A stretch of DNA of 63,590 nucleotides from a virus (Duplodnaviria > Caudoviricetes): the IMG/VR virus record IMGVR_UViG_3300014501_000004, positions 1 to 63,590 of that record. One strand, written 5' to 3'. Shown one piece after another: positions 674 through 13,010 of this stretch. Positions within the stretch are counted from its first letter, which is position 1. Each line of letters opens with the position of its first letter. Under the pieces are notes generated by a model. The model was not told the origin of the DNA. It saw nothing but the letters and a program-made list of their open reading frames with translations, and made no database searches. The position numbers and the translations under genes were made by a program.

Positions 674-2401
674 TCAGCGGTGATGCGCCGTCAACTGCTT
701 CTCGGCGACTTTCTCCTTGCCTTCGGGCGATAGCGCCTTCATTAAGTCTTCCTGCTTCTTCTGCCCGGCAGCCTGCCGGGTCTTGAGCGCCGCCTTGGCC
801 GACTCCTTATTCGGCAGCGGCAGGTTGTCGATCGTGTACTCGCCATCGACATCGCCGACCTTGCGCAACGCGAAGATCAACTGCTGCGCCTCGTCGGCAA
901 ATATCGGCGACGACGAATGGCTATCCACCGTGATGCGCCAGTCGGCCGGAATGTCAGTCAGCAGGAACGATGATTTCTCGATATCTGCCAGTTCGCCGGC
1001 ATTGGTCCAGAACTTCCGCGACTCCTTGGCCTCCATCAGCGCCGCGGTGAGATCCGCCGACGCCGCACATTGCCGCTCGACCGACAGCGCGCGATCGCGC
1101 AATGTCGGCGACGCCGTCTTCATCAATGTGCCCGCATGAGCGCCCGATCGCACACCCGCCTCGCCCTTGCCCTGCATGATGTCGGGGAAAGAGCCGAGCG
1201 TGTTGATGCTCTCGATCATGAACTTGACGGCAGGCAACAAAACTTCCGGAATTTTAGGCGTAATATCTTCCACGCCGCCGCCCATGCCGAGGTTCATGTA
1301 GCCGGAAGTGCGGAACTGGGCGTATGCCTCATCCAGGATCGTATTGTCGCCCTTGAACGCCAGCAACTTGTCGATCTGCTGCCCGACCAGGCGCTTGAAA
1401 TCGTCCATCCACTGCGCCAGCAGGCCCTGCGGCTCGATCAGATCGACCAACTCGCTCCGACCCCAGAACCAGTTCGACACTGGATTCGTCTGGATCAGGC
1501 GATACGGATGCGTGTCCTTGATCCCGAGCAGGTTCGACAGCTTGAACCTCGTGATCAAAATGTCCGGCTCGACCATCTGGATCGTGACGTAACCATCCTC
1601 GCCCTTGACCCATAGTTCGTGGAATTTGACGGTCGGGGCGCCGACGGTTGGTCCCATGATCGCATAATTAGGATCGTTGCCGATCTGGATGATGCCGCCG
1701 GGCAGCGGGCGCGTGCTTGACGAGATGCCGGTGTTGATCTGCGAGGTCGACAGTACCTGATGAAAAAAACTGTCCGGCGCGTTCGAGGCCTCGCCGGTCG
1801 ACGCATTGGTCATGATCTTGTCGTACAGCTTCCTGGCGTCGGGGAAGCGGTAGATGCGCTGCCAGATTTCAGGACCGGTCAGCGCCGAGGTCTCGCACAG
1901 CACTTCCTGCTCGTCGATATCGTTCTCGTCCTCACGGTAGACGCCGAAATTCCAGGGCAGCAGCAGCTTTTTCTTGTAGACCGGCTTCTTGTCGTCGCCA
2001 TCGGCGATTTCATCGGTCCATTGTTTCAAGACGGCAGCGCCGTACTTCAACGCTTCGAACACGCCTCGGCCGAACATCTCGTCGGTCGATGTCGACTCCC
2101 AGTGTCGGGTGACGTGCTTGGCGAATACTTCGGCGCGCTTGATGTCGTTGGTCGGATAGACGTTGGTGAAGTCCATCGAGAACTTCAGTTCGACCGGCGA
2201 GAACAGATGCGAGGAAGTGCGCTCAAGGTGCGTGTTCATCATGTTGATGAGCGACTTGGTGCCGTCGTAGCGGCCGGTTTCGGCGATGGTGTTAAGCAGG
2301 CGGTAGTAGGCCGCTCGCATGCCCCGGCTGACCCCGCATATCTCGACGAGTTCGTTCGCGAAGGGAACGAGGTCTTTCTCGCCTGTCGGGATCGGGATCA
2401 T
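674..2401 (-). CDS. Portal protein (podovirus type)
   Basis: 575 aa, downstream of terminase; FWGRSELVDLIEPQ and MQGKGEAGVRSG segments typical of P22-like portals. Confidence 0.8.
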   Translation of the reverse strand: MIPIPTGEKDLVPFANELVEICGVSRGMRAAYYRLLNTIAETGRYDGTKSLINMMNTHLERTSSHLFSPVELKFSMDFTNVYPTNDIKRAEVFAKHVTRHWESTSTDEMFGRGVFEALKYGAAVLKQWTDEIADGDDKKPVYKKKLLLPWNFGVYREDENDIDEQEVLCETSALTGPEIWQRIYRFPDARKLYDKIMTNASTGEASNAPDSFFHQVLSTSQINTGISSSTRPLPGGIIQIGNDPNYAIMGPTVGAPTVKFHELWVKGEDGYVTIQMVEPDILITRFKLSNLLGIKDTHPYRLIQTNPVSNWFWGRSELVDLIEPQGLLAQWMDDFKRLVGQQIDKLLAFKGDNTILDEAYAQFRTSGYMNLGMGGGVEDITPKIPEVLLPAVKFMIESINTLGSFPDIMQGKGEAGVRSGAHAGTLMKTASPTLRDRALSVERQCAASADLTAALMEAKESRKFWTNAGELADIEKSSFLLTDIPADWRITVDSHSSSPIFADEAQQLIFALRKVGDVDGEYTIDNLPLPNKESAKAALKTRQAAGQKKQEDLMKALSPEGKEKVAEKQLTAHHR

Positions 2402-2937
2402 CCGTGCTTGCTCCCAACCGTAATCTGACTTTGTAAGCCAGCGTGTCGACCGAGTATTTTGTTAAGCGCCCTTGCACCAGCCCGCGGTTCAAGTTTTTGT
2501 TCGACCACTCGCCCATTCGCCATAACCACGCCGGAAGCGCCGGAAGTATCCGCGCCCATGCCAAATCCGACCGGCATGCCGCGCGACTTCAGCGAATCCA
2601 TGTGCTGGGTTACGGCGTTATGCACCGGCATCACCGCCACTTCAGCGTCCCGACGATCGTTCAAGTCCGTAATTTTCAAAGCCGACATCTCGGACGCAGG
2701 CACGCCAGCCATCGCAGCGGCCATGTTGGCGCGGGTCTCGGAGCCGTCCATCATGTCGCGAACGACCTTATCGTTGGCCTTGGACTTCGGCGACAGGAAC
2801 GCAGGACAAACAATGTCGTCGTCGGCGCGCCGGTTGTTGATGTCGGTCTTGCAGAGCGGACAGAAATCCGGCCAGCCTTCGGTTACGTCGTACTTGAATT
2901 TTTCTCGGCAGGCGGGACAGCGGAGGATGACGGCCAT
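2398..2937 (-). CDS. Zn-ribbon hypothetical protein
   Basis: CPAC...CPLC; ATGA overlap with portal. Confidence 0.7.
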   Translation of the reverse strand: MAVILRCPACREKFKYDVTEGWPDFCPLCKTDINNRRADDDIVCPAFLSPKSKANDKVVRDMMDGSETRANMAAAMAGVPASEMSALKITDLNDRRDAEVAVMPVHNAVTQHMDSLKSRGMPVGFGMGADTSGASGVVMANGRVVEQKLEPRAGARALNKILGRHAGLQSQITVGSKHG

Positions 2938-2938
2938 T

Positions 2939-3121
2939 TCAAATATCCGAATTCATCGCACTGGCGATGTAGAAAGCAAAAGCGACCCATGCAACGCAGC
3001 CGACAATGCCGAGAACCACAAGTGCAGCGCCGAGTCCGCCTTTCAGCATCGCACCAGTAACGATTGCGCCGACGGGGATCGCCAAAAGACCAAAAATAAC
3101 AAACAATCCAAACCCGCTCAT
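2939..3121 (-). CDS. Small membrane protein
   Basis: Two hydrophobic stretches; tightly packed in the operon. Confidence 0.6.
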   Translation of the reverse strand: MSGFGLFVIFGLLAIPVGAIVTGAMLKGGLGAALVVLGIVGCVAWVAFAFYIASAMNSDI

Positions 3122-3124
3122 CTG

Positions 3125-5071
3125 CTATCTCCGTCCGTACCGCCACGCCTGTTGCATCGCCAGCTGCCGCGCCTGCAACCTCGACTGCTGCTGCCGGCCC
3201 ATGAACTGACTCATCATATTCTGGTGGAATAGCGATGTCTGGTCAACGATTGACTTGTGCTTGCGGACCTTCTCGGCCTCCCGGGTGCGCTTGGCGACGA
3301 TCAAATTGCGGCGGACCCGGGTATCCCAATAATGCGCGCCCAAGGCCATCGCTACCACGCGATCGTCATGCTCGCCAGAGCCTTCGCCGGCAATCGTATC
3401 CCCGTCCCGCGCGATGGTCTGCATCTCTCCGATCAGGTCATGGCTTCGAATATGGAGGTGCCCGCTGCTGACAAAGCCTCGAAGCTCCTCCATGATCATG
3501 ATCTTGGTCGCAAGCTGAGTCTTGAAGTGCCACAGCCCCGCGCCGCCGGACAACAAATCAGGCCGGGTGTAGAGATATTGTTTTACATTGGCGAAGATGT
3601 TTTTAAGCCCTGCCTCTTGCAGCGGCGCGTAGCCGTTCTCGATTTGAAACTTCAGCGAGCGCAACTCCTGAAGCACCGATCCGCCGGGACCGTTTATTTC
3701 CAGGATGTAATGAATCTCGCAAAGCGGCTCGTTGCCGTACCAAGCCATGATGCCGGCGAGGATATGCGCCAGATGACGAGGTACCACCAACGAATAAGCA
3801 TACTCAGCAACCTGATCTATACCGTCAGCATAGCAACGAAGAACCTGAATGGCCGAGCGATCATTGTTCTCGTTCTCCCCGAACGCCGGATCGCACGCCA
3901 CGACGTAAACCGACTCGGGTTGCGGCGGCTCCCACACTTTCAATTCCAGCATTCGCGCGTTCTCGGCGCGATAGACCTTCATGTCACTGAACTCGGGTCC
4001 GCCCATGAACATATACGGCGTGAATTTATTCGAAACGTATTTGTCGGTTTGATCCTTCAGTTTTTCCCCAGCGAAAAACACGCTGCCGGTGATCTGGAAG
4101 GCTTCTTCTTCGTCCCACGGCTGTTCCTGTTTCTGATACGAACTGGCCTCGAACCCGGCATCGACTTCGCCAGCATCGATCGCAGCGGGGTCCATCGCCT
4201 TGCGGTACCATGCAAGCTGCTCCTGCGAGACATCGAAGTTATATAGCTTTTTAACAAGATCGATCTTGGCATGCTCCTCGCTCGACGGCGGCTGCACGCC
4301 GTAGAATTCCCAGTTGCGGTCGGTACGCTCGATGCGATGGCTTTCCTTGGCCCACCAGCCGATGAAAACGCAAACGGCGTTGCGAGTGTTGGAGCGCGCT
4401 TCCTTCCAGATACGCGACCACATATTCATGCCGCGCGCCGTGGACTCTCGGATGTAAAGTCGATTAGGATGGACGTCGGACAACGACTCCTGAAACGATA
4501 TCAAGCCTTCTTCGTTATCAAAACTGCACAACTCTGAAAGATGCGCCAAAGAAACACCCGCGGAACGCCCCAGCGTACCAGATGTTTTTGTTTTCTTAAT
4601 GCCTGCGGACTTAAAAAGAATTTTGGAAGCGTTCGACAGTGTCAGGCCGTCGCGATTGTCTTTAGCAATGCTGGGAAATTTTAAGCTGGCCGGTAGCGCC
4701 TTGATAACAGTCACCAGCTCATCACGAGCCAGGTTCTTGTTCTCATTAGTGTCGAACACCAAAGCGCCGGTTAGCCCGCGATGGACGCCGAGGAAGAAAG
4801 CGCACAGCGCGCGTATAATTGAAGTGATTCCAAGTTGCCTCGATTTAAGACAGTAAAAATCGTGAATGTCCTGCTCAAGCCCGTCGAAGATCGCAGTGAT
4901 AAAAACCTTCTGTCCGTACATCAAATGCTTACCGAGAATGATCGGCTCGCCATAATCTTTCGAATTTATTTCGTACTGATCCAGGTAGGCATAAAACGCT
5001 TCCTCAAACGCAACCCGCTTGGCGCGGCTCCAGCCTCGTGCCTTCTGACCTAATAGCTCACCGTCTGCCAT
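3125..5071 (-). CDS. terL: Terminase large subunit
   Basis: LKSRQLGITS Walker A, AHLSE Walker B, ESTARG coupling motif, VVACDPAFG and HDDRVVA nuclease motifs. Confidence 0.92.
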   Translation of the reverse strand: MADGELLGQKARGWSRAKRVAFEEAFYAYLDQYEINSKDYGEPIILGKHLMYGQKVFITAIFDGLEQDIHDFYCLKSRQLGITSIIRALCAFFLGVHRGLTGALVFDTNENKNLARDELVTVIKALPASLKFPSIAKDNRDGLTLSNASKILFKSAGIKKTKTSGTLGRSAGVSLAHLSELCSFDNEEGLISFQESLSDVHPNRLYIRESTARGMNMWSRIWKEARSNTRNAVCVFIGWWAKESHRIERTDRNWEFYGVQPPSSEEHAKIDLVKKLYNFDVSQEQLAWYRKAMDPAAIDAGEVDAGFEASSYQKQEQPWDEEEAFQITGSVFFAGEKLKDQTDKYVSNKFTPYMFMGGPEFSDMKVYRAENARMLELKVWEPPQPESVYVVACDPAFGENENNDRSAIQVLRCYADGIDQVAEYAYSLVVPRHLAHILAGIMAWYGNEPLCEIHYILEINGPGGSVLQELRSLKFQIENGYAPLQEAGLKNIFANVKQYLYTRPDLLSGGAGLWHFKTQLATKIMIMEELRGFVSSGHLHIRSHDLIGEMQTIARDGDTIAGEGSGEHDDRVVAMALGAHYWDTRVRRNLIVAKRTREAEKVRKHKSIVDQTSLFHQNMMSQFMGRQQQSRLQARQLAMQQAWRYGRR

Positions 5072-5127
5072 TGGAACTTTATAACGGCTGTGCTATTAGC
5101 AGTCCACCCCTCCGGAGGAATTAGGCC

Positions 5128-5367
5128 ATGTGTTTCTCATTACAGTGGGCCGAACAGCTCTGCATCTTCATCGTGATCGTCATCGCGATATGGTCGGTTA
5201 TTCAGTTACTTCTCCCCTATCTCGTTCAATTTCTGCCTGCTCTGGTCGTCCAAATTATCCGGATCATTTGCTGGGCAGTCATCGCGATCATGTGCATCTA
5301 CGTCATCTTTGGATTGCTCTCGTGCCTGATCGGTGCCGGAGGTGGCCTCATGCATTTTTCCCACTGA
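5128..5367 (+). CDS. Small two-TM membrane protein
   Basis: GGAGG RBS, highly hydrophobic, opposite strand to neighbours. Confidence 0.7.
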   Translation: MCFSLQWAEQLCIFIVIVIAIWSVIQLLLPYLVQFLPALVVQIIRIICWAVIAIMCIYVIFGLLSCLIGAGGGLMHFSH

Positions 5368-5620
5368 CCGTCAGTCGCAGGTAGATCCGCTCCCGCCCTA
5401 TCCGGCCGCTCCGCCGTCGATCTGCCGCGGCTGCTAACGATCGCGCATCCACAGGTGATAAAGCGCCATGGATGTAAACGCAACGTAGCCTCCAAAAGTG
5501 CGAGCAATAACTTCGGCCCCCGGCGCTAACCTACACGCGGTTGTGTAATCTGGCGCTTCCTAAAACGAAAAAAATAAAATGCCGGGCTCGTTTTCAAAAC
5601 TGTCTCTGGAAACGCCCATT

Positions 5621-5899
5621 CTAGCGAAAGCCGGGTTGCTGCCGCGACTGCTTCTCCATCTCGTTCATGGCGATCTGGACGATAGTCTGGATCGAGGCCC
5701 AGAAAATACCCGGCTGGTCCTGGTCGAGCATCAGCGAGCGGAACGCGGTAGACTCGTCGATCGTATTCGGAGACACCATGACGAAGGCACCGCCAAAGAC
5801 CGCATCCTTGTTGAGCCGGATCTGGGCGGCCATGGCCTCGAACAAAAGGGCGCGGGCTTCGGCTTGGCGGTGGGCGAGAGGAAGTTCTTCGTCGGTCAC
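5621..5899 (-). CDS. Hypothetical protein
   Basis: GTGA overlap with the upstream gene. Confidence 0.6.
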   Translation of the reverse strand: MTDEELPLAHRQAEARALLFEAMAAQIRLNKDAVFGGAFVMVSPNTIDESTAFRSLMLDQDQPGIFWASIQTIVQIAMNEMEKQSRQQPGFR

Positions 5900-6070
5900 A
5901 GTTCATCCAGTTCTACGATCTGAAACGGATACCCAGCCTCGATAACTGGTATCTTCTTCGATTGTGATATAGCCTCGTCTCGGTCTTTAAAAACAGCCGG
6001 ATCATCGCTATCGTCATCGCCAATAATGACAACTCTGCCGCTGCTGGGAATTCGGATGACGATAATGCAA

Positions 6071-6292
6071 TCAGACATATCTAAACCCCGCCGCGAACGG
6101 CTTGATCTCATCCAGAAACATTCCGCCGGCAGATAGCGCGGTCGACAGTGCGAGCGCCGTGCCCTCGTCGAACCCGGTGTAGGCGCCGGTCTTGCCTCCC
6201 TTGAGGAATTTCACCAGCACCTCCTGCGTCTCGTCGTCCCAACCGACTTCCTCGATCATGCTTGATAAAACGGGTTTCATCCAGCCGGCCAT
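6071..6292 (-). CDS. KTSC-domain-like protein
   Basis: VLSSMIEEVGWDD...LVKF..G...Y...ALSAGGMF...IK pattern. Confidence 0.65.
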   Translation of the reverse strand: MAGWMKPVLSSMIEEVGWDDETQEVLVKFLKGGKTGAYTGFDEGTALALSTALSAGGMFLDEIKPFAAGFRYV

Positions 6293-6449
6293 CACACAAG
6301 CTCCACGCGTAAACAGCCGCGGAAGAAATCCCGCGTGGAATACGAATTATTTGGTCCGTACATGATATCAACTGGATATTTTTCCAATGCAATGATGTCT
6401 TTCATGCTTATCCGGTTAAGACACACGGCCCTAGATGTTGTGGTCATGT

Positions 6450-7172: not shown

Positions 7173-8600
7173 CTAACCTTGAACTGCATCGACCTTCTCC
7201 CTCAACGCTTCGACGATTCGCTCGAACACCGGCTCCCATCGCATGTCGTCGGACTGTTGGAAAAACCTTGACTTTGGGGTCCAAAGACGTTGTCCATCGG
7301 CGCCGCTAACTCCTGCACGATAATCCCTTCCGAGGTAGCTATAACCAACCCAACATTCTCGATTTGATATTGAACATATGTGCCCGAGAGCTGATTCAAC
7401 TGTAATGACAAGGTCGAGGTTTTGAAGGATTGAGGTAGTGTCCGCAACATCTCGAATGTATCCCGATAAGTCCCTGATGACCGGCGCGCAACCCCACAAA
7501 TTCAGATCGGACTTTTTAGCATCGACCTGCAATGAGTACAATTGAATTCCCGGCACACGCAACAATTCCAGGAAATGATGAATCGGTATATTGCGGTGCT
7601 TGTCGATGTCGTTCATCGGCGAGCCCGACCACGCGATACCGATATGACACTTTCGATCCGGCACGCGCCAGTGGCTCGACATCGAGAATTTCGGCATGTC
7701 GATGTTGGGGGCGTTCCTGATCTCGTCGTCCGTCAGTCCCAGAGCGTAGGGCAGCGAGACGAAGGTAGACCAGCAGTCGGCATCTGGAGGAAAGTTCGAA
7801 GGCGAAGGCAGGAAGTGGAGATTGTCCATGTGCCGGAATGCGTGCTCAAACACGCGACGCAGTTCACTCTGCACGCACATCGAAATGTGTCGACAACGAC
7901 GTGCAGCCTGCTCGACAAAACGGGAATACGAGAGCGTGTCACCAAGACCCTGATCGGCCACCAGGAACAGCGTCTTGTCATTTTCTCCTCGCCACTTGGG
8001 ATACGGGTACATCGTGAAGTTCGGCAGCCGTGCCGCAAACCTCGACTCGAAATGCTTCAGCCCTAAAGCGTACTGTCCGTCGAACAACAGCGCGAACGCC
8101 AGCTGGAATTCGGCCGTGACGTCGCCGGGCGGACCGAGATCGACACACTTGCGGGCGCACTCGACGGCCGTCTTGGTCTGTCCGAGGATCGTGTGCACGA
8201 GGCCGAGGATCATCCATGGCAGCGACAGCTTTGGATTAAGCTCGATGGCGCGGTGACAGTGCTCGATGGTCTCGACCTGCCGGCCTACCTTGTGCAGCTC
8301 CCACGCGAGATTGGTTAAGAGCTTCGGAAGCTCGTCAGCATCCACTTCGGCTTCCAGCGCACGCCGGAAGATGGCGGCAGCCGCGTGCGGGCGCTGAAGA
8401 TCGGAGGTGGCGCAGCCGGCGGCGTAAAAGGCGTGGCCGTAAGACGGGTCCGCAAAACACGCGGAGGTGATGAGCTGGTATCCGTGGTCAAGATTGGTTG
8501 CCTGTGTTCGATCTTGCGCAGCCTGCTCGCCTTTGACCAACAGGTTGATCGCCTGCTGGCGCCGGGCGTCGTTGATCGGAAGTGGAACCGCTTTATTCAC
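7173..8600 (-). CDS. TPR-repeat glycosyltransferase (GT-B, GT9-like C-terminus)
   Basis: N-terminal TPRs; DQGLGD, IGIAWSG, YSLQ, LDLVITVESALGH motifs; native start is GTG at 8600 inside the IS target duplication. Confidence 0.85.
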   Translation of the reverse strand: MNKAVPLPINDARRQQAINLLVKGEQAAQDRTQATNLDHGYQLITSACFADPSYGHAFYAAGCATSDLQRPHAAAAIFRRALEAEVDADELPKLLTNLAWELHKVGRQVETIEHCHRAIELNPKLSLPWMILGLVHTILGQTKTAVECARKCVDLGPPGDVTAEFQLAFALLFDGQYALGLKHFESRFAARLPNFTMYPYPKWRGENDKTLFLVADQGLGDTLSYSRFVEQAARRCRHISMCVQSELRRVFEHAFRHMDNLHFLPSPSNFPPDADCWSTFVSLPYALGLTDDEIRNAPNIDMPKFSMSSHWRVPDRKCHIGIAWSGSPMNDIDKHRNIPIHHFLELLRVPGIQLYSLQVDAKKSDLNLWGCAPVIRDLSGYIRDVADTTSILQNLDLVITVESALGHICSISNRECWVGYSYLGRDYRAGVSGADGQRLWTPKSRFFQQSDDMRWEPVFERIVEALREKVDAVQG

Positions 8601-8615
8601 TTCATGCTTATCCGG

Positions 8616-8644
8616 TTGACACATACAAACCCCCGTGCTAGTGT
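8616..8644 (+). promoter_or_regulatory. Inward promoter overlapping the left TIR
   Basis: TTGACA, 17-nt spacer, TAGTGT. Confidence 0.65.
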
Positions 8645-8683
8645 TTCGTCATTGGACAAGCCCGCCCGGTAATGGAGAGACAG

Positions 8684-8869
8684 ATGACCAAGATCGCTTC
8701 CAACGAACAGGCCAAGCGGACGGTACAGGCCCTCGCAGAGACGACTGGCCTTATCGCCAAGGAGGAATCCTATCGCCTTGACCTTCAGCACGCTGGTTAC
8801 CTCGCCACGCTGAAGCAACACGCTGCGAAGCTTTTGCAGATGATTAGCAACTACAAGGCGGGGGTCTGA
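8684..8869 (+). CDS. IS passenger hypothetical protein 1
   Basis: GGAG RBS; inside the TIRs. Confidence 0.65.
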   Translation: MTKIASNEQAKRTVQALAETTGLIAKEESYRLDLQHAGYLATLKQHAAKLLQMISNYKAGV

Positions 8870-8872
8870 GCC

Positions 8873-9094
8873 ATGGCACACCTTAAAAATTGGTGCCCCG
8901 AAATGTCGCCCGCAGAATATGCGTGGTTCGACAAGTGCCCAAAGGCCGTATTGTTTGAAATTGCTCGCCAATTCGCTATGCGGCTCGGCGACAACTTCAC
9001 GGCCGAGTCTGCTTTTGCCGTTATGCAGACCGAATGGGAAGTGTTGCACGTTCAAGGGATTGTGCCGCAAAAAGCGCCACACGCGAGGGGTTGA
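8873..9094 (+). CDS. IS passenger hypothetical protein 2
   Basis: GGGG RBS; TGA-GCC-ATG junction. Confidence 0.65.
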   Translation: MAHLKNWCPEMSPAEYAWFDKCPKAVLFEIARQFAMRLGDNFTAESAFAVMQTEWEVLHVQGIVPQKAPHARG

Positions 9095-9097
9095 GCC

Positions 9098-9406
9098 ATG
9101 CCACGTGACTTCATCAGGGATATAAAGCTGGCGCTTTTCTTGGATAAGATGAGCGCCACTCTCGCCAACGATCTTGAATGGGCTCTCGCAATCATTGGTG
9201 AGAGTGGCCAACCACAAAGCATAAAAAATGCGAACCGCTACGTTTACGCATGGCAGCATCTTAGAATGAGGCGTGAATATGAGGCGGCCTGTTCCGGTGT
9301 TGGCGCGGGTGAGTTCCGTGGCGATGATCGTGATGAAAATGGCAATCTTACAACGCTCAAGGAACATCGTAAGGGTCCTTTGCCAAGTCGGCCGCGAGGG
9401 GATTGA
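9098..9406 (+). CDS. IS passenger hypothetical protein 3
   Basis: GAGGGG RBS; TGA-GCC-ATG junction. Confidence 0.6.
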   Translation: MPRDFIRDIKLALFLDKMSATLANDLEWALAIIGESGQPQSIKNANRYVYAWQHLRMRREYEAACSGVGAGEFRGDDRDENGNLTTLKEHRKGPLPSRPRGD

Positions 9407-9409
9407 CGA

Positions 9410-10459
9410 ATGCCTCCCCACGCCGACGTACTCCAATGGGAACATTTGCCGTTTCCCAAGTCTCTCAGGGACTTCCAGCGGCTGTTCAAAGACGACGCCG
9501 CTTGCGCCCGATACTTGGAGGGCGCGAAGTGGCCCAAGGGTTTTGTCTGCCCACATTGCGAGGAAAAGGGCGAGCCGTTCCGCATGGCGACCCGGACCAG
9601 CGTGTTGACCTGCCGCGCCTGCCGCAAGCAAACGTCGCTGACGGTCGATACCGTGATGCAGCGCACGCATACGCCGCTGACGGTCTGGTTTTGGGCGGCC
9701 TATCTGGTTTCCAGCATGACGCCCGGCATGTCCGCCGTGCAGTTCCAGCGCCAGCTTGGCCTGACCCGATACGAAACCGCGTTCCAAATTCTGCACAAGC
9801 TGCGGGCTGGCATGGTCCGCCAAGGCCGGGATCGGATCGGCGGCAACCTTGGGCGCGGCGATCACGTCGAAGTCGATGAAACCTACATCGGCGGCGTGGT
9901 ACGCGGCGAAGGTCAAGGCCCCAAGCCAGATGATTCCGTTCTGGTTTCCGCCGCCGTCGAAGTCCGCACTAGACCGGCCAAGAAGGGCGACAAGCCTACC
10001 CGACGCGGCGGGCGCTACGCTGGCCGCCTGCGGCTGGAAATCGTCCCCAACCGCTCGGCTAAGGCGCTGGTAGGCTTTGTGGAAAACGCGGTCGAACCCG
10101 GCGCGATGGTCATCACGGACGCGGCCCCGGCCTACAACAAACTCGGCATGTCGGGCTACGCCCATCTGCCCGTGGTCGAGGCCGGGAACCCGGAAGTTGC
10201 CGAGGAATTTCTGCCCATCGTTCACCTCGTTTTCTCGAACCTCAAGGCGTGGCTGCAAGGGACGCATCACGGGCGCGTCGAGCCGCAACACCTGCAAGCC
10301 TACCTCAATGAGTTCACGTTCCGCTTTAACCGGCGCTTCTACCCGTTCAACGCCTTCCGTTCGCTGCTCGGCATCGGGACCAACGGCGAAGGCCCGACCT
10401 ATGCCGGGATTTATGAGGGAACTTGGAAGCATCCGACGATGGAAACCCATCATGATTAA
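9410..10459 (+). CDS. IS1595-family transposase (ISSod11-like)
   Basis: WPKGFVCPHC..CRAC Zn ribbon, VEVDETYIGG, VITD, VHLVFSNLK, HLQAYLNEFTFRFNRR. Confidence 0.93.
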   Translation: MPPHADVLQWEHLPFPKSLRDFQRLFKDDAACARYLEGAKWPKGFVCPHCEEKGEPFRMATRTSVLTCRACRKQTSLTVDTVMQRTHTPLTVWFWAAYLVSSMTPGMSAVQFQRQLGLTRYETAFQILHKLRAGMVRQGRDRIGGNLGRGDHVEVDETYIGGVVRGEGQGPKPDDSVLVSAAVEVRTRPAKKGDKPTRRGGRYAGRLRLEIVPNRSAKALVGFVENAVEPGAMVITDAAPAYNKLGMSGYAHLPVVEAGNPEVAEEFLPIVHLVFSNLKAWLQGTHHGRVEPQHLQAYLNEFTFRFNRRFYPFNAFRSLLGIGTNGEGPTYAGIYEGTWKHPTMETHHD

Positions 10460-10686
10460 TCAACCTTTGGGGGCTGTATGTTCAAACCGGATAAGCATGA
10501 TTCACTTAAATGTCCCTGCCATTTATTTCGGAAATGAGTGGCGAGACAAATGCCATGACTGATCGCGGTGCCGCGGAAGATGTCGTGAACCCATTCCGAC
10601 GTGTCCTCGCGCTGTCGCACCTTGATGCCGATCTTGCAATGCGGGCAAACATCGTAAACGGTTTTGTCGAATTCTTCTCGGGTCAC
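10456..10686 (-). CDS. Hypothetical protein whose C-terminus is extended by the IS insertion
   Basis: Pre-insertion allele would end ...QGHLSE* overlapping the TPR gene GTG. Confidence 0.7.
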   Translation of the reverse strand: MTREEFDKTVYDVCPHCKIGIKVRQREDTSEWVHDIFRGTAISHGICLATHFRNKWQGHLSESCLSGLNIQPPKVD

Positions 10687-11360
10687 GTCGTCATCCTCCT
10701 GACCGCTTCCGGCGAGTAAGGCGTCCCGGCGCGAGAGACAAAGCCCTCCGCCGCCAGTTGTCGGCCGATCGCCCTTAAGGAAGCAGTCCGTGCCAGCACG
10801 CGCATGCGCGCCGCCGCCTGAACTTCCTGCTCATTAATCTCAAGCGTAGCCGACCGGCCCTCTCCAACCTTACGGAACCCGAACGGGATCTCGCCGACCG
10901 CGCCGCCGCGATCCTTCTTGGCCTTGCGGCCGGCCGCGGTGCGCTCCAGGATGCGCTGGCGCTCCATGTCGGCCACGGCGGCAAGGATGGTCAGGGTCAT
11001 CTTGCCGACGGCGGAGGACAGCGGCTCGGCGGAGATGTCATAGAGAATCAGGTCGACGCCCGCGGCCTTGAACTCCTCGAACATGGTGACGGCATCGCCG
11101 GCCGAACGGAACATGCGGTCGAGCTTGGACGAAATCACGACATCGCCGGGCTTCATGGCGCGAAGGAGATCGGCACCGGCCGGACGGAACGACAGCTTGG
11201 TCGCCCCGGACACGCCTGCATCGGTATAAATCTGGACGTCGAACTTGTCGGCACCGCGGACCCGGGCAATGCCTTCGATGACGTCGGTCTGGACCTGCAG
11301 GCTGGACCGGTCGTCCTTGGCCTGATCGAGCGAACTTACCCTGCAATATCCGAGTATCAT
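10683..11360 (-). CDS. Serine recombinase (resolvase family)
   Basis: GYCRVSS, DAGVSG, KLDRMFRS, ERQRILERTAAG, G..PFGF. Confidence 0.92.
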   Translation of the reverse strand: MILGYCRVSSLDQAKDDRSSLQVQTDVIEGIARVRGADKFDVQIYTDAGVSGATKLSFRPAGADLLRAMKPGDVVISSKLDRMFRSAGDAVTMFEEFKAAGVDLILYDISAEPLSSAVGKMTLTILAAVADMERQRILERTAAGRKAKKDRGGAVGEIPFGFRKVGEGRSATLEINEQEVQAAARMRVLARTASLRAIGRQLAAEGFVSRAGTPYSPEAVRRMTT

Positions 11361-11526: not shown

Positions 11527-12528
11527 TCAAGCCGATTGCTTCGTCAAGGCCTGATCGCGTATCCACGGATAAGTGATGGCGAGCCCGTTCCACAAACTGG
11601 TCGAAGGCTCCCAGTCGAGGACTTTGCGGCACAAAGTATTATCCGATCCTCTCGCCGTCACCCCAACCGGACCGTCCACCCACCGATGCACCAGTACCTT
11701 GTTGGCGACGCGCAACACGGTCTCGAACAGTTCCATGATCGTGACAGTCTCGGCATTGGCAATGTTGAGCGGCTGGGTGTAGTCGGAGTCCATCAGACGC
11801 TGGATGCCGTCGATCACGTCGTCGACGTAGGTGAAGGATCGGCGGACACCACCATTACCCCAGAGATCGACAGTTCCAGCATAACTGGCTTGGGCGACCT
11901 TGCGGCAGATCGCTGCAGGAGCCTTAGCTCGATCACCATCCCACGTAGAGTAAGGACCGTAGGTGTTCCCGAGACGTCCAATACAACAGTCAATCCCGTA
12001 ATTGCGTCGGTAGGCGTCATACAATTTCTCCGCAAACATTTTCTCCTGCCCGAAAGCGAAGGTGTCGAAGTGGGCATCGGTCTCGCGATGGGCCGCGTTG
12101 TCGACGATGCCCCCGAAGCGTTCGGCGGCAAACGGATCGATCTCGAATTTGTCGGGATAGACGCACTGCGAGGAGGCAAAGAAAATCTTGCCGACGCTCT
12201 CGGTCTTCCGGATCGCCTCCAGGGTGTGAAGGTTGATCTTTACTGAATTAGTGAGAATAGCAGCGTCGTTAGCAGAATTGCCGATATAGCCAAGACCGCC
12301 AACCTCGGACGCGAATTGATACACCCGATCAAACTGATGGCGGAAATAATGGTGGTGAAACTCAGGAGGGTTAGCAAGATCCAGAATGTTAAGCTCATCG
12401 GCAACGCTCCTTCGATACAGCGGCGGGTGACGGGCTACGCTGACGACATGCCAGCCTTCTTCTTTTAGTCTGTACTCCATATGACCGCCAAGCATGCCGG
12501 AAGCGCCGAGCACGAGAGCTTTTTTCAT
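11527..12528 (-). CDS. NAD-dependent nucleotide-sugar epimerase (GDP-mannose 3,5-epimerase-like)
   Basis: GASGMLG, VGGLGYI, FASSQCVYP, KAPAAICRKV, RSFTYVDD, GPVGVTARGSDN. Confidence 0.85.
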   Translation of the reverse strand: MKKALVLGASGMLGGHMEYRLKEEGWHVVSVARHPPLYRRSVADELNILDLANPPEFHHHYFRHQFDRVYQFASEVGGLGYIGNSANDAAILTNSVKINLHTLEAIRKTESVGKIFFASSQCVYPDKFEIDPFAAERFGGIVDNAAHRETDAHFDTFAFGQEKMFAEKLYDAYRRNYGIDCCIGRLGNTYGPYSTWDGDRAKAPAAICRKVAQASYAGTVDLWGNGGVRRSFTYVDDVIDGIQRLMDSDYTQPLNIANAETVTIMELFETVLRVANKVLVHRWVDGPVGVTARGSDNTLCRKVLDWEPSTSLWNGLAITYPWIRDQALTKQSA

Positions 12529-13010
12529 TTCCACTCCGTTACAATGTTCATAGCTATGCTGGACTCAGCCAACCGCATTGTTGCGCCGATCCCGAACGCC
12601 GCGAGCACGGCAGGCGCTCCACTATTTGCTTCGGCCCTCCGCCCATCGGGGTAGTGAAAATAAAGCCTATCCTTCAAAAATCCAATTGCGTCGGCACGTT
12701 CCCAAATCGGTTCAAACCATTCAGCTTCGGTCCGCGCGTGTACCAAAGCGATGCCGCCCGGCTTATGTCGCGATAGTCTATCAATCCATAAACCGACCTT
12801 ATAACGATGAAAAGGCGGGTTGAGCCAAACAAATCCATTCCACGGCATGTTCAGTCCGCGTGATGTAAACTGGAACGTCGCACACGGCCATGGCTGCGTT
12901 ACCGATGCACACGGATCTAAATCGAATGGGCCAAGATCGTCGATGATTAATTTCGGCGTGATCCAGTCTTGCGAATCGCCGATCGTTTTCTGGTGACTGC
13001 CTAGTGTCAT
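12525..13010 (-). CDS. Phage Dam-like DNA N6-adenine methyltransferase
   Basis: WITP, FDLDPCA, VWLNPPF, ARTEAEWF. Confidence 0.85.
   Translation of the reverse strand: MTLGSHQKTIGDSQDWITPKLIIDDLGPFDLDPCASVTQPWPCATFQFTSRGLNMPWNGFVWLNPPFHRYKVGLWIDRLSRHKPGGIALVHARTEAEWFEPIWERADAIGFLKDRLYFHYPDGRRAEANSGAPAVLAAFGIGATMRLAESSIAMNIVTEWK

Follow-up and report, generated by a model that had tools for sequence, protein, structure and literature searches.

The window analyzed here is the whole stretch of 63,590 nucleotides (nt) of a tailed-phage record (Duplodnaviria; Caudoviricetes; IMG/VR record IMGVR_UViG_3300014501_000004), which is complete with terminal repeats and carries one copy of a 1897-bp transposon of the insertion sequence (IS) family IS1595 at 8603-10499. 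The left and right inverted repeats of the element (IRL and IRR) have arms of 31-32 nt that are 84% complementary (8603-8633 / 10469-10499), and the direct repeat ATTCACTT found on both flanks is an 8-bp target-site duplication, the size expected for the IS1595 family. The transposase contains the DDE_Tnp_IS1595 domain (PF12762, residues 151-307, E=6.9e-32, 111 bits against a cut-off of 27) and an N-terminal zinc ribbon (PF12760, residues 27-74, E=2.1e-12), and matches phrog_25593 (E=2.7e-37). Membership in the family is thus supported by the DDE domain, by the zinc ribbon, by the repeats with the 8-bp duplication, and also by mobility: 37 elements including this one lie at differing sites, there are IS-free relatives with an intact junction, and two phages have two copies. 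The window element is an autonomous transposon with three small passenger genes (Table 1), for which searches of Pfam and PHROGs gave zero matches. The subject of this report is the open reading frame (ORF) that is codon-aligned and antisense to these genes; it is open over nearly the full length of the element in this copy and in most relatives, and it appears to be maintained for its openness and not for its product.

Table 1. Features of the transposon, its insertion site and the two flanking phage genes in the window (aa, amino acids)
Feature	Position	Strand	Remarks
TPR-repeat gene, downstream	7173..8600	-	475 aa from native GTG (8600..8598); Pfam TPR_1, E=3.5e-9
Target-site duplication, left copy	8595..8602	.	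ATTCACTT; includes, on the minus strand, the TPR start codon GTG
Codon-aligned antisense ORF	8597..10453	-	618 codons + stop
IRL	8603..8633	+	tip CATG; TTGACA hexamer pointing inward
Candidate promoter of the cargo-transposase operon	8616..8644	+	-35 TTGACA 8616-8621, 17-nt spacer, TG-n-TAGTGT (-10 8639-8644)
Cargo ORF 1	8672..8869	+	65 aa from 8672, or more probably 61 aa from ATG 8684, preceded by GGAGAG
Cargo ORF 2	8873..9094	+	73 aa; junction TGA-GCC-ATG, GGGGG upstream
Cargo ORF 3	9098..9406	+	102 aa; junction TGA-GCC-ATG
IS1595-family transposase	9410..10459	+	349 aa; N-terminal zinc ribbon + DDE domain; junction TGA-CGA-ATG
Upstream phage gene	10456..10686	-	76 aa now; final 14 codons + TAA stop (10458..10456) IS-derived
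IRR	10469..10499	+	pairs with IRL
Target-site duplication, right copy	10500..10507	.	matches 8595..8602

The element is inserted antisense to both flanking phage genes, at their overlapping stop/start junction, within a long block of leftward genes that overlap one another by 4 nt. In the IS-free phage relatives L119, L120 and L126, the stop of the upstream gene overlaps the start of the TPR gene by 8 nt, and deletion in silico of the element together with one copy of the duplication gives back this 8-nt overlap in the window. Because excision restores the native geometry, the transposon must have entered exactly the stop/start overlap. By the insertion, the upstream gene, whose native end reads ...GHLSE-stop, now takes its last 14 codons from the right end of the element. 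The GTG of the TPR gene is part of the duplication and is retained, but the native sequence upstream of the gene is lost; begun at the ATG 8624..8622 inside IRL, the gene would encode 483 aa. Metagenome contigs of the probable source run bridge both junctions of the element, and members of the family are abundant in other metagenomes.

The ORFs from 8672/8684, 8873, 9098 and 9410 are all in phase 2, and the junctions between them read GGGGTCTGAGCCATG, AGGGGTTGAGCCATG and GGGGATTGACGAATG; the shared frame and the G-rich-TGA-NNN-ATG junctions that an earlier note on this DNA had pointed out are both confirmed. On the opposite strand, the codon-aligned ORF passes the transposase gene, all three cargo ORFs, the leader and IRL before it terminates in the flanking DNA. 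It begins with ATGATG, which lies opposite the two His codons (CAT CAT) at the C-terminus of the transposase. The ATG at 10453 is located 2 nt past the TAA of the upstream gene, and the TGA (8599..8597) overlaps the GTG of the TPR gene, so that every coordinate given for this frame in the earlier note holds. When the codon usage of the phage is taken as reference (62 ORFs, 17,049 codons), 6.8 aligned antisense stops are expected in this copy (P(0)=0.0008), and 4.3 are expected from the conservative estimate based on its own share of A-ending codons (P(0)=0.013), while the longest aligned antisense open run in the other ORFs of the phage is 376 codons. The codon-aligned frame is the easiest of the antisense frames to stay open. 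For the single copy, the open frame is mildly improbable (0.0008 to 0.013), and the case rests on the family.

An antisense frame kept open across the family

A search with the transposase gave 36 loci on viral contigs and about ten close relatives on contigs of alphaproteobacterial metagenome-assembled genomes (MAGs). From the 47 close loci, L004 and L113 were excluded as identical to L003 and L106, L011 as a member of another clade (45% identical), L096, L097, L102, L103 and L111 because only one of their repeats was located in the DNA retrieved, and L114, L116 and L117 as partial matches; the remaining 36 elements and that of the window make up a sample of 37. The repeat tip is common to all of them, and perfect 8-bp duplications, at differing sites, accompany 33 of the 37. 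The elements are 1324 to 2845 bp long, a range that arises because the cargo between IRL and the transposase gene spans 73 to 1754 nt. The lineage is found mainly in uncultured phages, whose hosts, judging from the MAG titles alone, are probably Alphaproteobacteria. The phage records of GenBank contain no DNA match to the element, and the closest proteins in them, with 22-26% identity, come from two unannotated metagenome-derived records named 'Bacteriophage sp.'.

The aligned antisense ORF of 28 of the 37 elements begins shortly inside IRR, crosses the transposase gene and the cargo, and leaves the element through IRL; that of six others ends 36-81 nt before the IRL tip. The frame is thus kept in relatives with different cargo. 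With incomplete loci and two extra copies included, there are 44 distinct transposase matches, of which 40 are free of aligned antisense stops; the others are two pseudogenes with sense stops (L012, L115), L100 with one aligned stop, and L102/L103 with two.

The cargo ORFs are locked in the phase of the transposase gene. At 64 junctions that follow an in-phase cargo ORF, an in-phase ATG comes directly after the stop in 16 cases and 3 nt later in 39 (55/64 together), and Shine-Dalgarno-like runs of the GGAG/GAGG/GGGG type occur at -16 to -4 before the ATG at 53 of the 64. Gene overlaps of 4 nt or 1 nt, which are of the phage type, would shift the phase. Where the phase changes (L082, L107 and L134), the antisense ORF is broken or, in L134, replaced: there, a pair of minus-strand ORFs that share 8 nt still covers the element, entering from outside IRR and leaving beyond IRL. 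Synonymous choice alone can keep open only the codon-aligned antisense frame.

The same phase would be expected if stop codons were read through on the sense strand to make cargo-cargo-transposase fusions, with the open antisense frame as a by-product, and UGA readthrough had been proposed for the window in the earlier note. TGA is the leakiest stop, and all three window junctions have TGA, 3 nt and ATG in one phase. In the family, however, the stops at the 64 junctions are TGA in 29, TAA in 28 and TAG in 7, which is not the single kind of stop in a conserved context that programmed readthrough would call for. What is found is the arrangement of coupled operons, in which stop and start lie a few nt apart and a Shine-Dalgarno-like run is contained in the end of the upstream ORF. 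The three kinds of stop, the restart ATG and the Shine-Dalgarno-like run point to separate, coupled ORFs, and readthrough is no general explanation. Furthermore, the cargo proteins are mutually unrelated, which makes obligatory fusions implausible, and readthrough would not purge TTA, CTA and TCA within the ORFs. We therefore reject readthrough as very improbable.

The purge of these three codons, which are read as stops in the aligned antisense frame, is seen in both transposase and cargo genes. In 35 intact transposase genes with 65-89% nucleotide identity to that of the window, CTA is used for 2 and TTA for 0 of 1029 Leu residues, and TCA for 0 of 441 Ser residues, while GTA, CCA, ACA, GCA, GGA and CGA each account for 5.6-7.8% of their boxes; the 2 aligned-stop codons compare with 60 expected from the genes' own A-ending share. 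As trinucleotides, TTA, CTA and TCA occur 2 times in phase 0, 426 times in phase 1 and 503 times in phase 2 of the same genes, and when only distinct (column, codon) states are counted, the depletion is 2/156 against 152/860 (Fisher p=7e-10). In 159 flanking ORFs of the same contigs, TTA and CTA make up 9.5% of Leu codons and TCA 10.6% of Ser codons. The 64 in-phase cargo ORFs, which form 57 mostly unrelated sequence clusters and have a GC content at third codon positions (GC3) of 0.68, as the flanks do, contain 2 CTA, 0 TTA and 1 TCA; against these 3 codons, 54.5 are expected from their own A-ending share or about 69 from the usage of the flanks. At least 54 of the 57 clusters are free of aligned stops, with 20.7 expected.

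The earlier note had cautioned that shadow ORFs opposite GC-rich genes are common, and its caveat amounts to one account of the frame, namely that GC-rich usage makes TTA, CTA and TCA rare and the ORF opens by chance. The probabilities for the window copy alone leave some room for this, and distant IS1595 transposases of high GC3 likewise lack aligned stops (see below). As an explanation it is contradicted by the codon counts of the family: the frequency of stops does not agree with codon usage, since the other A-ending codons are normal (5.6-14%) in the same transposase and cargo genes and the flanks use the three codons freely, and the depletion is specific to one phase and recurs over 57 unrelated cargo clusters. 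Chance also leaves the phase-locked junctions unexplained, and we reject it as the least credible of the alternatives. That continuity across cargo and inverted repeat is selected, as the earlier note supposed, is strongly supported by about 40 relatives together with these counts. Avoidance of particular codons on the sense strand, for example through tRNA supply, was also considered and is ruled out by the normal NNA codons; it would leave phase-locking unexplained.

Differences between relatives indicate which strand codes. They fall on codon positions 1, 2 and 3 as 90, 79 and 227 in pairs of cargo ORFs, and as 1627, 1281 and 4775 in the transposases, where sense position 3 thus takes 4775 of 7683. 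Read in antisense, 5084 of 5626 differing codons alter the amino acid. As sense position 3 is free and the antisense residues change, the sense ORFs are real genes and the antisense peptide is unconstrained. An overlapping gene with a functional protein, of which ardD within tniA of Tn5053 is a precedent, would account for the length of the ORF and for its conserved ATG. Such a gene should have a conserved protein with little variation at sense position 3, and its own start and stop within the element. Here, the start is conserved, but in 28 of 37 elements the ORF has its stop supplied by the flank; its C-terminal third to half is the antisense of unrelated cargo and wholly different between elements; and the antisense ORF has no Pfam match. 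A functional antisense protein is accordingly rejected as having very little probability. On the evidence of sequence, selection acts on the openness of the frame only, the product of the antisense strand being irrelevant.

Ribosome transit as a possible role of the frame

The ends of the element show how ribosomes might enter and leave. Inward through IRR on the minus strand, the incoming frames are closed by TGA (16-18), TGA (38-40) and TAA (10458..10456; 42-44 nt from the tip and already outside 10469..10499), and after these closures ATGATG follows at 47-52 nt from the tip. In the last six transposase codons, which lie opposite, His is encoded by CAT 57 times and CAC once, compared with CAC 304 and CAT 144 elsewhere; this CAT-rich end may also be constrained as a binding site of the transposase. 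In the outward direction, each repeat offers two ATGs, one 21 nt from the tip together with a G run, the other at the end of the tip itself; a TAA closes the third frame. These signals are GGGG with the ATG 8624..8622 in IRL, on the minus strand and in frame with the TPR gene, and GGGGG with the ATG 10478-10480 in IRR, on the plus strand. Among 25 scorable ends out of 74, defined by one dominant flank frame that is open for at least 70 codons from the tip and including some frames that may be shadows, the flank frame matches the ATG 21 nt from the tip in 14, the tip ATG in 8 and the TAA-closed frame in 3 (chi-square p=0.026). Matching of the outward ATGs to flank frames is suggestive only.

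As its simplest role, and at about even probability in our estimate, the open antisense frame is kept for the transit of ribosomes, by which antisense insertions in phage operons would become non-polar. Untranslated read-through RNA, nearly 2 kb in this case, is a target of Rho, and translated RNA is not. The element would use two devices: its sense ORFs avoid TTA, CTA and TCA, and its cargo is locked in the phase of the transposase gene through junctions of a stop, 0 or 3 nt, and ATG. In an antisense insertion, a ribosome arriving from the upstream gene would halt in the right repeat and restart at the ATGATG 2-6 nt onward; ribosomes would then trail RNA polymerase through the element and out via the left repeat. 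The read-through transcript would always be translated and would escape Rho-dependent termination, and the downstream gene would be translated either by coupling at the end of the antisense ORF or from the outward GGGG-ATG in the inverted repeat. Insertions in phage operons would stay non-polar in this way, and the carrier phage would remain viable. For the displaced TPR gene, the earlier note suggested loss of the ribosome-binding site and re-coupling: its separation from the native upstream context stands, and re-coupling could be brought about by the antisense ORF or equally by the ATG in IRL.

With somewhat less assurance than for transit itself, we propose that a phage-adapted IS1595 lineage has evolved 'translational transparency': it is phase-locked and purged of three codons, so that translation from repeat to repeat, serving no protein, would keep ribosomes behind RNA polymerase, and with outward ribosome-binding sites and ATGs in both repeats it could carry swappable cassettes of small genes and methyltransferases in essential phage operons without polarity. 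Translation of the antisense frame, the role of Rho and the benefit are what we infer from the patterns described above.

Several points weigh against this proposal. Openness is not universal: the aligned stops of L100 (1) and L102/L103 (2) lie inside intact transposase genes, the antisense ORF is interrupted within the cargo in L009 and L082, and in the decayed L012 it is interrupted further in as well. The exact TGA/GTG overlap in the window is fixed by the flank and not by the element, since the ORFs of relatives run 6 to 854 nt beyond IRL. The relatives are not independent, and Poisson or binomial P values overstate the significance; safer guides are the Fisher test, which uses distinct states, and the tally made over unrelated cargo clusters. 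A control of 50 distinct sequences of distant IS1595 transposases, with L011 set aside, is uninformative, since 16 of 17 with GC3 >=0.79 (about 0.82) have no aligned stops; those with GC3 of 0.67-0.71 (n=32, copies from few genomes) mostly have 2-8.

Orientation is mixed too, although antisense insertions of the kind that the proposal supposes do occur. By crude ORF calls in the flanks, both flanking ORFs are antisense to the transposase gene in 8 of the 37 elements and both are sense in 13, with the rest mixed. Four elements (L092, L100, L104 and L106) have cargo between the transposase gene and the right repeat, encoded on the minus strand, where it abuts or overlaps the start of the antisense ORF, and the minus strand is thus coding throughout. 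One of the four, L106, is co-directional with its flanks. The plus strand is not open across this cargo, which makes the transparency asymmetric. Furthermore, frame keeping is not clear in three mini-elements without transposase, with aligned stops of 2 (2.3 expected), 0 and 1 (0.8 and 0.5 expected), and 0 (2.4 expected); this would not be expected if the frame served against polarity alone.

The last of these points bring in the main rival account, in which the frame serves the element itself. A long translated antisense transcript, starting in or near IRR or from the minus-strand cargo, would silence the cargo-transposase operon by convergent transcription or RNA pairing, or would carry the minus-strand cargo and outward transcripts. 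That the frame is kept in transposase-bearing elements and not clearly in the three mini-elements somewhat favors this account, as does the asymmetry of openness, the minus strand being open in every case and the plus strand being closed where minus-strand cargo lies; the minus-strand cargo, which includes N6/N4 and C5 DNA methyltransferases, also runs directly into the antisense ORF. On the other hand, a promoter scan of 8300-10800 found no antisense promoter, and a translated antisense RNA of 1.8 kb would be costly compared with the short antisense RNAs of other insertion sequences. The account leaves unexplained why, in 28 of 37 elements, the frame continues without a stop past the non-coding leader and along IRL as far as its tip, and why the incoming frames are closed just ahead of ATGATG. 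We consider it possible but unlikely, and clearly behind ribosome transit.

Cargo, mini-elements and neighboring genes

The promoter-like motif at 8616-8644 is kept in the left ends of the relatives when the ends of the 37 elements are aligned, and it is likely to be the promoter of the cargo-transposase operon. In a consensus promoter scan of 8300-10800, no promoter was called, this candidate being below the thresholds of the scan. A terminator scan of the same region gave one weak terminator-like site, fewer than in shuffled sequences, and the leader RNA of the left end is not predicted to fold better than shuffles (z = 0.81). The opening five codons of cargo ORF 1 (ME+xM) are a conserved piece of the left end in many relatives.

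The 61 cargo proteins of the family have few matches, namely two DNA methyltransferases, zinc ribbons and one Xre/MbcA/ParS_C domain. Between otherwise unrelated cargo ORFs in L003, L008, L085, L086, L094, L109 and the window (8858-8879 / 9083-9104), the junction motif GGAGGGCTGAGCCATG recurs, exactly or with slight changes. This recurrence suggests exchange of cassettes by recombination at junctions, or strong selection on the junction. The mini-elements have the same repeat tips and consist of cargo only: one of 832 bp (L106:5640-6471) has a 242-aa ORF and the duplication AAATTTTA, one of 541 bp (L109:61-601) has two small ORFs and the duplication ATCCATTT, and one of 682 bp (L115:5158-5839) has an ORF resembling a C5-methyltransferase and no clean duplication. 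Probably, they are non-autonomous cargo carriers moved in trans.

Two phage records (L087; L110/L134) each harbor two different family members. In L087, the copies at 2220-4090 and 4558-6431 are inverted and only 467 bp apart, and the second copy, outside the main sample, shows the full pattern again. L003 and L004 are near-identical contigs of 8,847 and 8,848 bp filed under MAGs of Caenispirillum and Rhodoplanes, with the same element coordinates, duplication and transposase in the fetched 5 kb; they are probably one phage contig binned twice. The decayed L012 (L012:1247-4091) is located on a MAG chromosome; its transposase gene has sense stops and 12 aligned antisense stops, and its cargo region contains two large minus-strand ORFs that are candidates for another transposase. 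The duplications at 33 loci show a tendency to an initial ATT or a final AAT, and many include ATGA, GTGA or a stop codon. AT-rich octamers seem to be the preferred target of the element, and in these GC-rich phages they are located where one gene borders the next.

A contig of the metagenome run X3 joins window positions 10501 and 8603 and thereby connects a family member's right end with a left end. The 8 nt between the joined ends, two matching the flank and six others, are equal to the duplication in length, and the joining fits a circle junction or head-to-tail neighbors. In the operon of the window, the neighboring ORFs at 10683-11360, 11527-12534 and 12525-13010 encode a serine recombinase (Resolvase, E=3.3e-30), an NAD-dependent epimerase/dehydratase and a Dam-like DNA methyltransferase, respectively, and most of the remaining ORFs of the leftward block match no family.

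Relation to known systems

Polarity is a classical property of insertion sequences, and their supposed rarity in phages is explained by the lethality of insertions into packed operons. If the proposed role is true, this lineage shows a DNA transposon escaping the polarity limit in compact phage operons, a previously unrecognized way for such a transposon to be phenotypically silent and to act as a vehicle of gene exchange between phages. It would be an unusually clean case of selection solely on the absence of stops, with an irrelevant peptide, and it bears on the annotation of long antisense ORFs, on the reach of Rho-dependent polarity in shaping mobile elements, and on the traffic of small accessory genes and of methyltransferases among phages. 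Non-polar insertion cassettes might be built on the phase-locked, stop-free design. Titles and abstracts of the literature searched mention neither a stop-free antisense frame in insertion sequences as an anti-polarity device nor phase-locked cargo cassettes.

The closest known systems are the transporter elements of the IS1595 family, with which the window element shares a transposase with a zinc ribbon and a DDE domain, inverted repeats, an 8-bp duplication and passenger genes without a function in transposition. Subgroups of IS1595 with passenger genes presumably include ISNwi1+ and ISPna2+. The present lineage has features that are not known to have been described for the family, namely swappable, phase-locked small cargo, the stop-free antisense frame spanning the element, and occurrence mostly in phages.

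Long ORFs on the opposite strand of IS5 and IS903 were reportedly noted in the 1980s. Like the frame described here, these shadow ORFs are long, codon-aligned and opposite a transposase gene. In this lineage, however, the frame is maintained across genes, junctions and repeat, with three codons lost in diverged transposases and in unrelated cargo.

A functional counterpart is ardD, an antirestriction gene located antisense within tniA of Tn5053 (PMC3533173). It also lies opposite the transposase gene of a mobile element; it is a discrete gene with a protein function, whereas here the peptide is unconstrained and the ORF usually lacks a stop codon within the element.

Free-standing homing endonuclease genes, introns and inteins minimize their damage to phage operons. 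The proposed device would combine the logic of such silent selfish elements with that of translational coupling and Rho-dependent polarity, in which untranslated RNA invites Rho and proximity of stop and start permits re-initiation. Introns and inteins are spliced out, and homing genes lie between genes with their own signals, whereas the element described here would be a DNA transposon that is made translatable in antisense.

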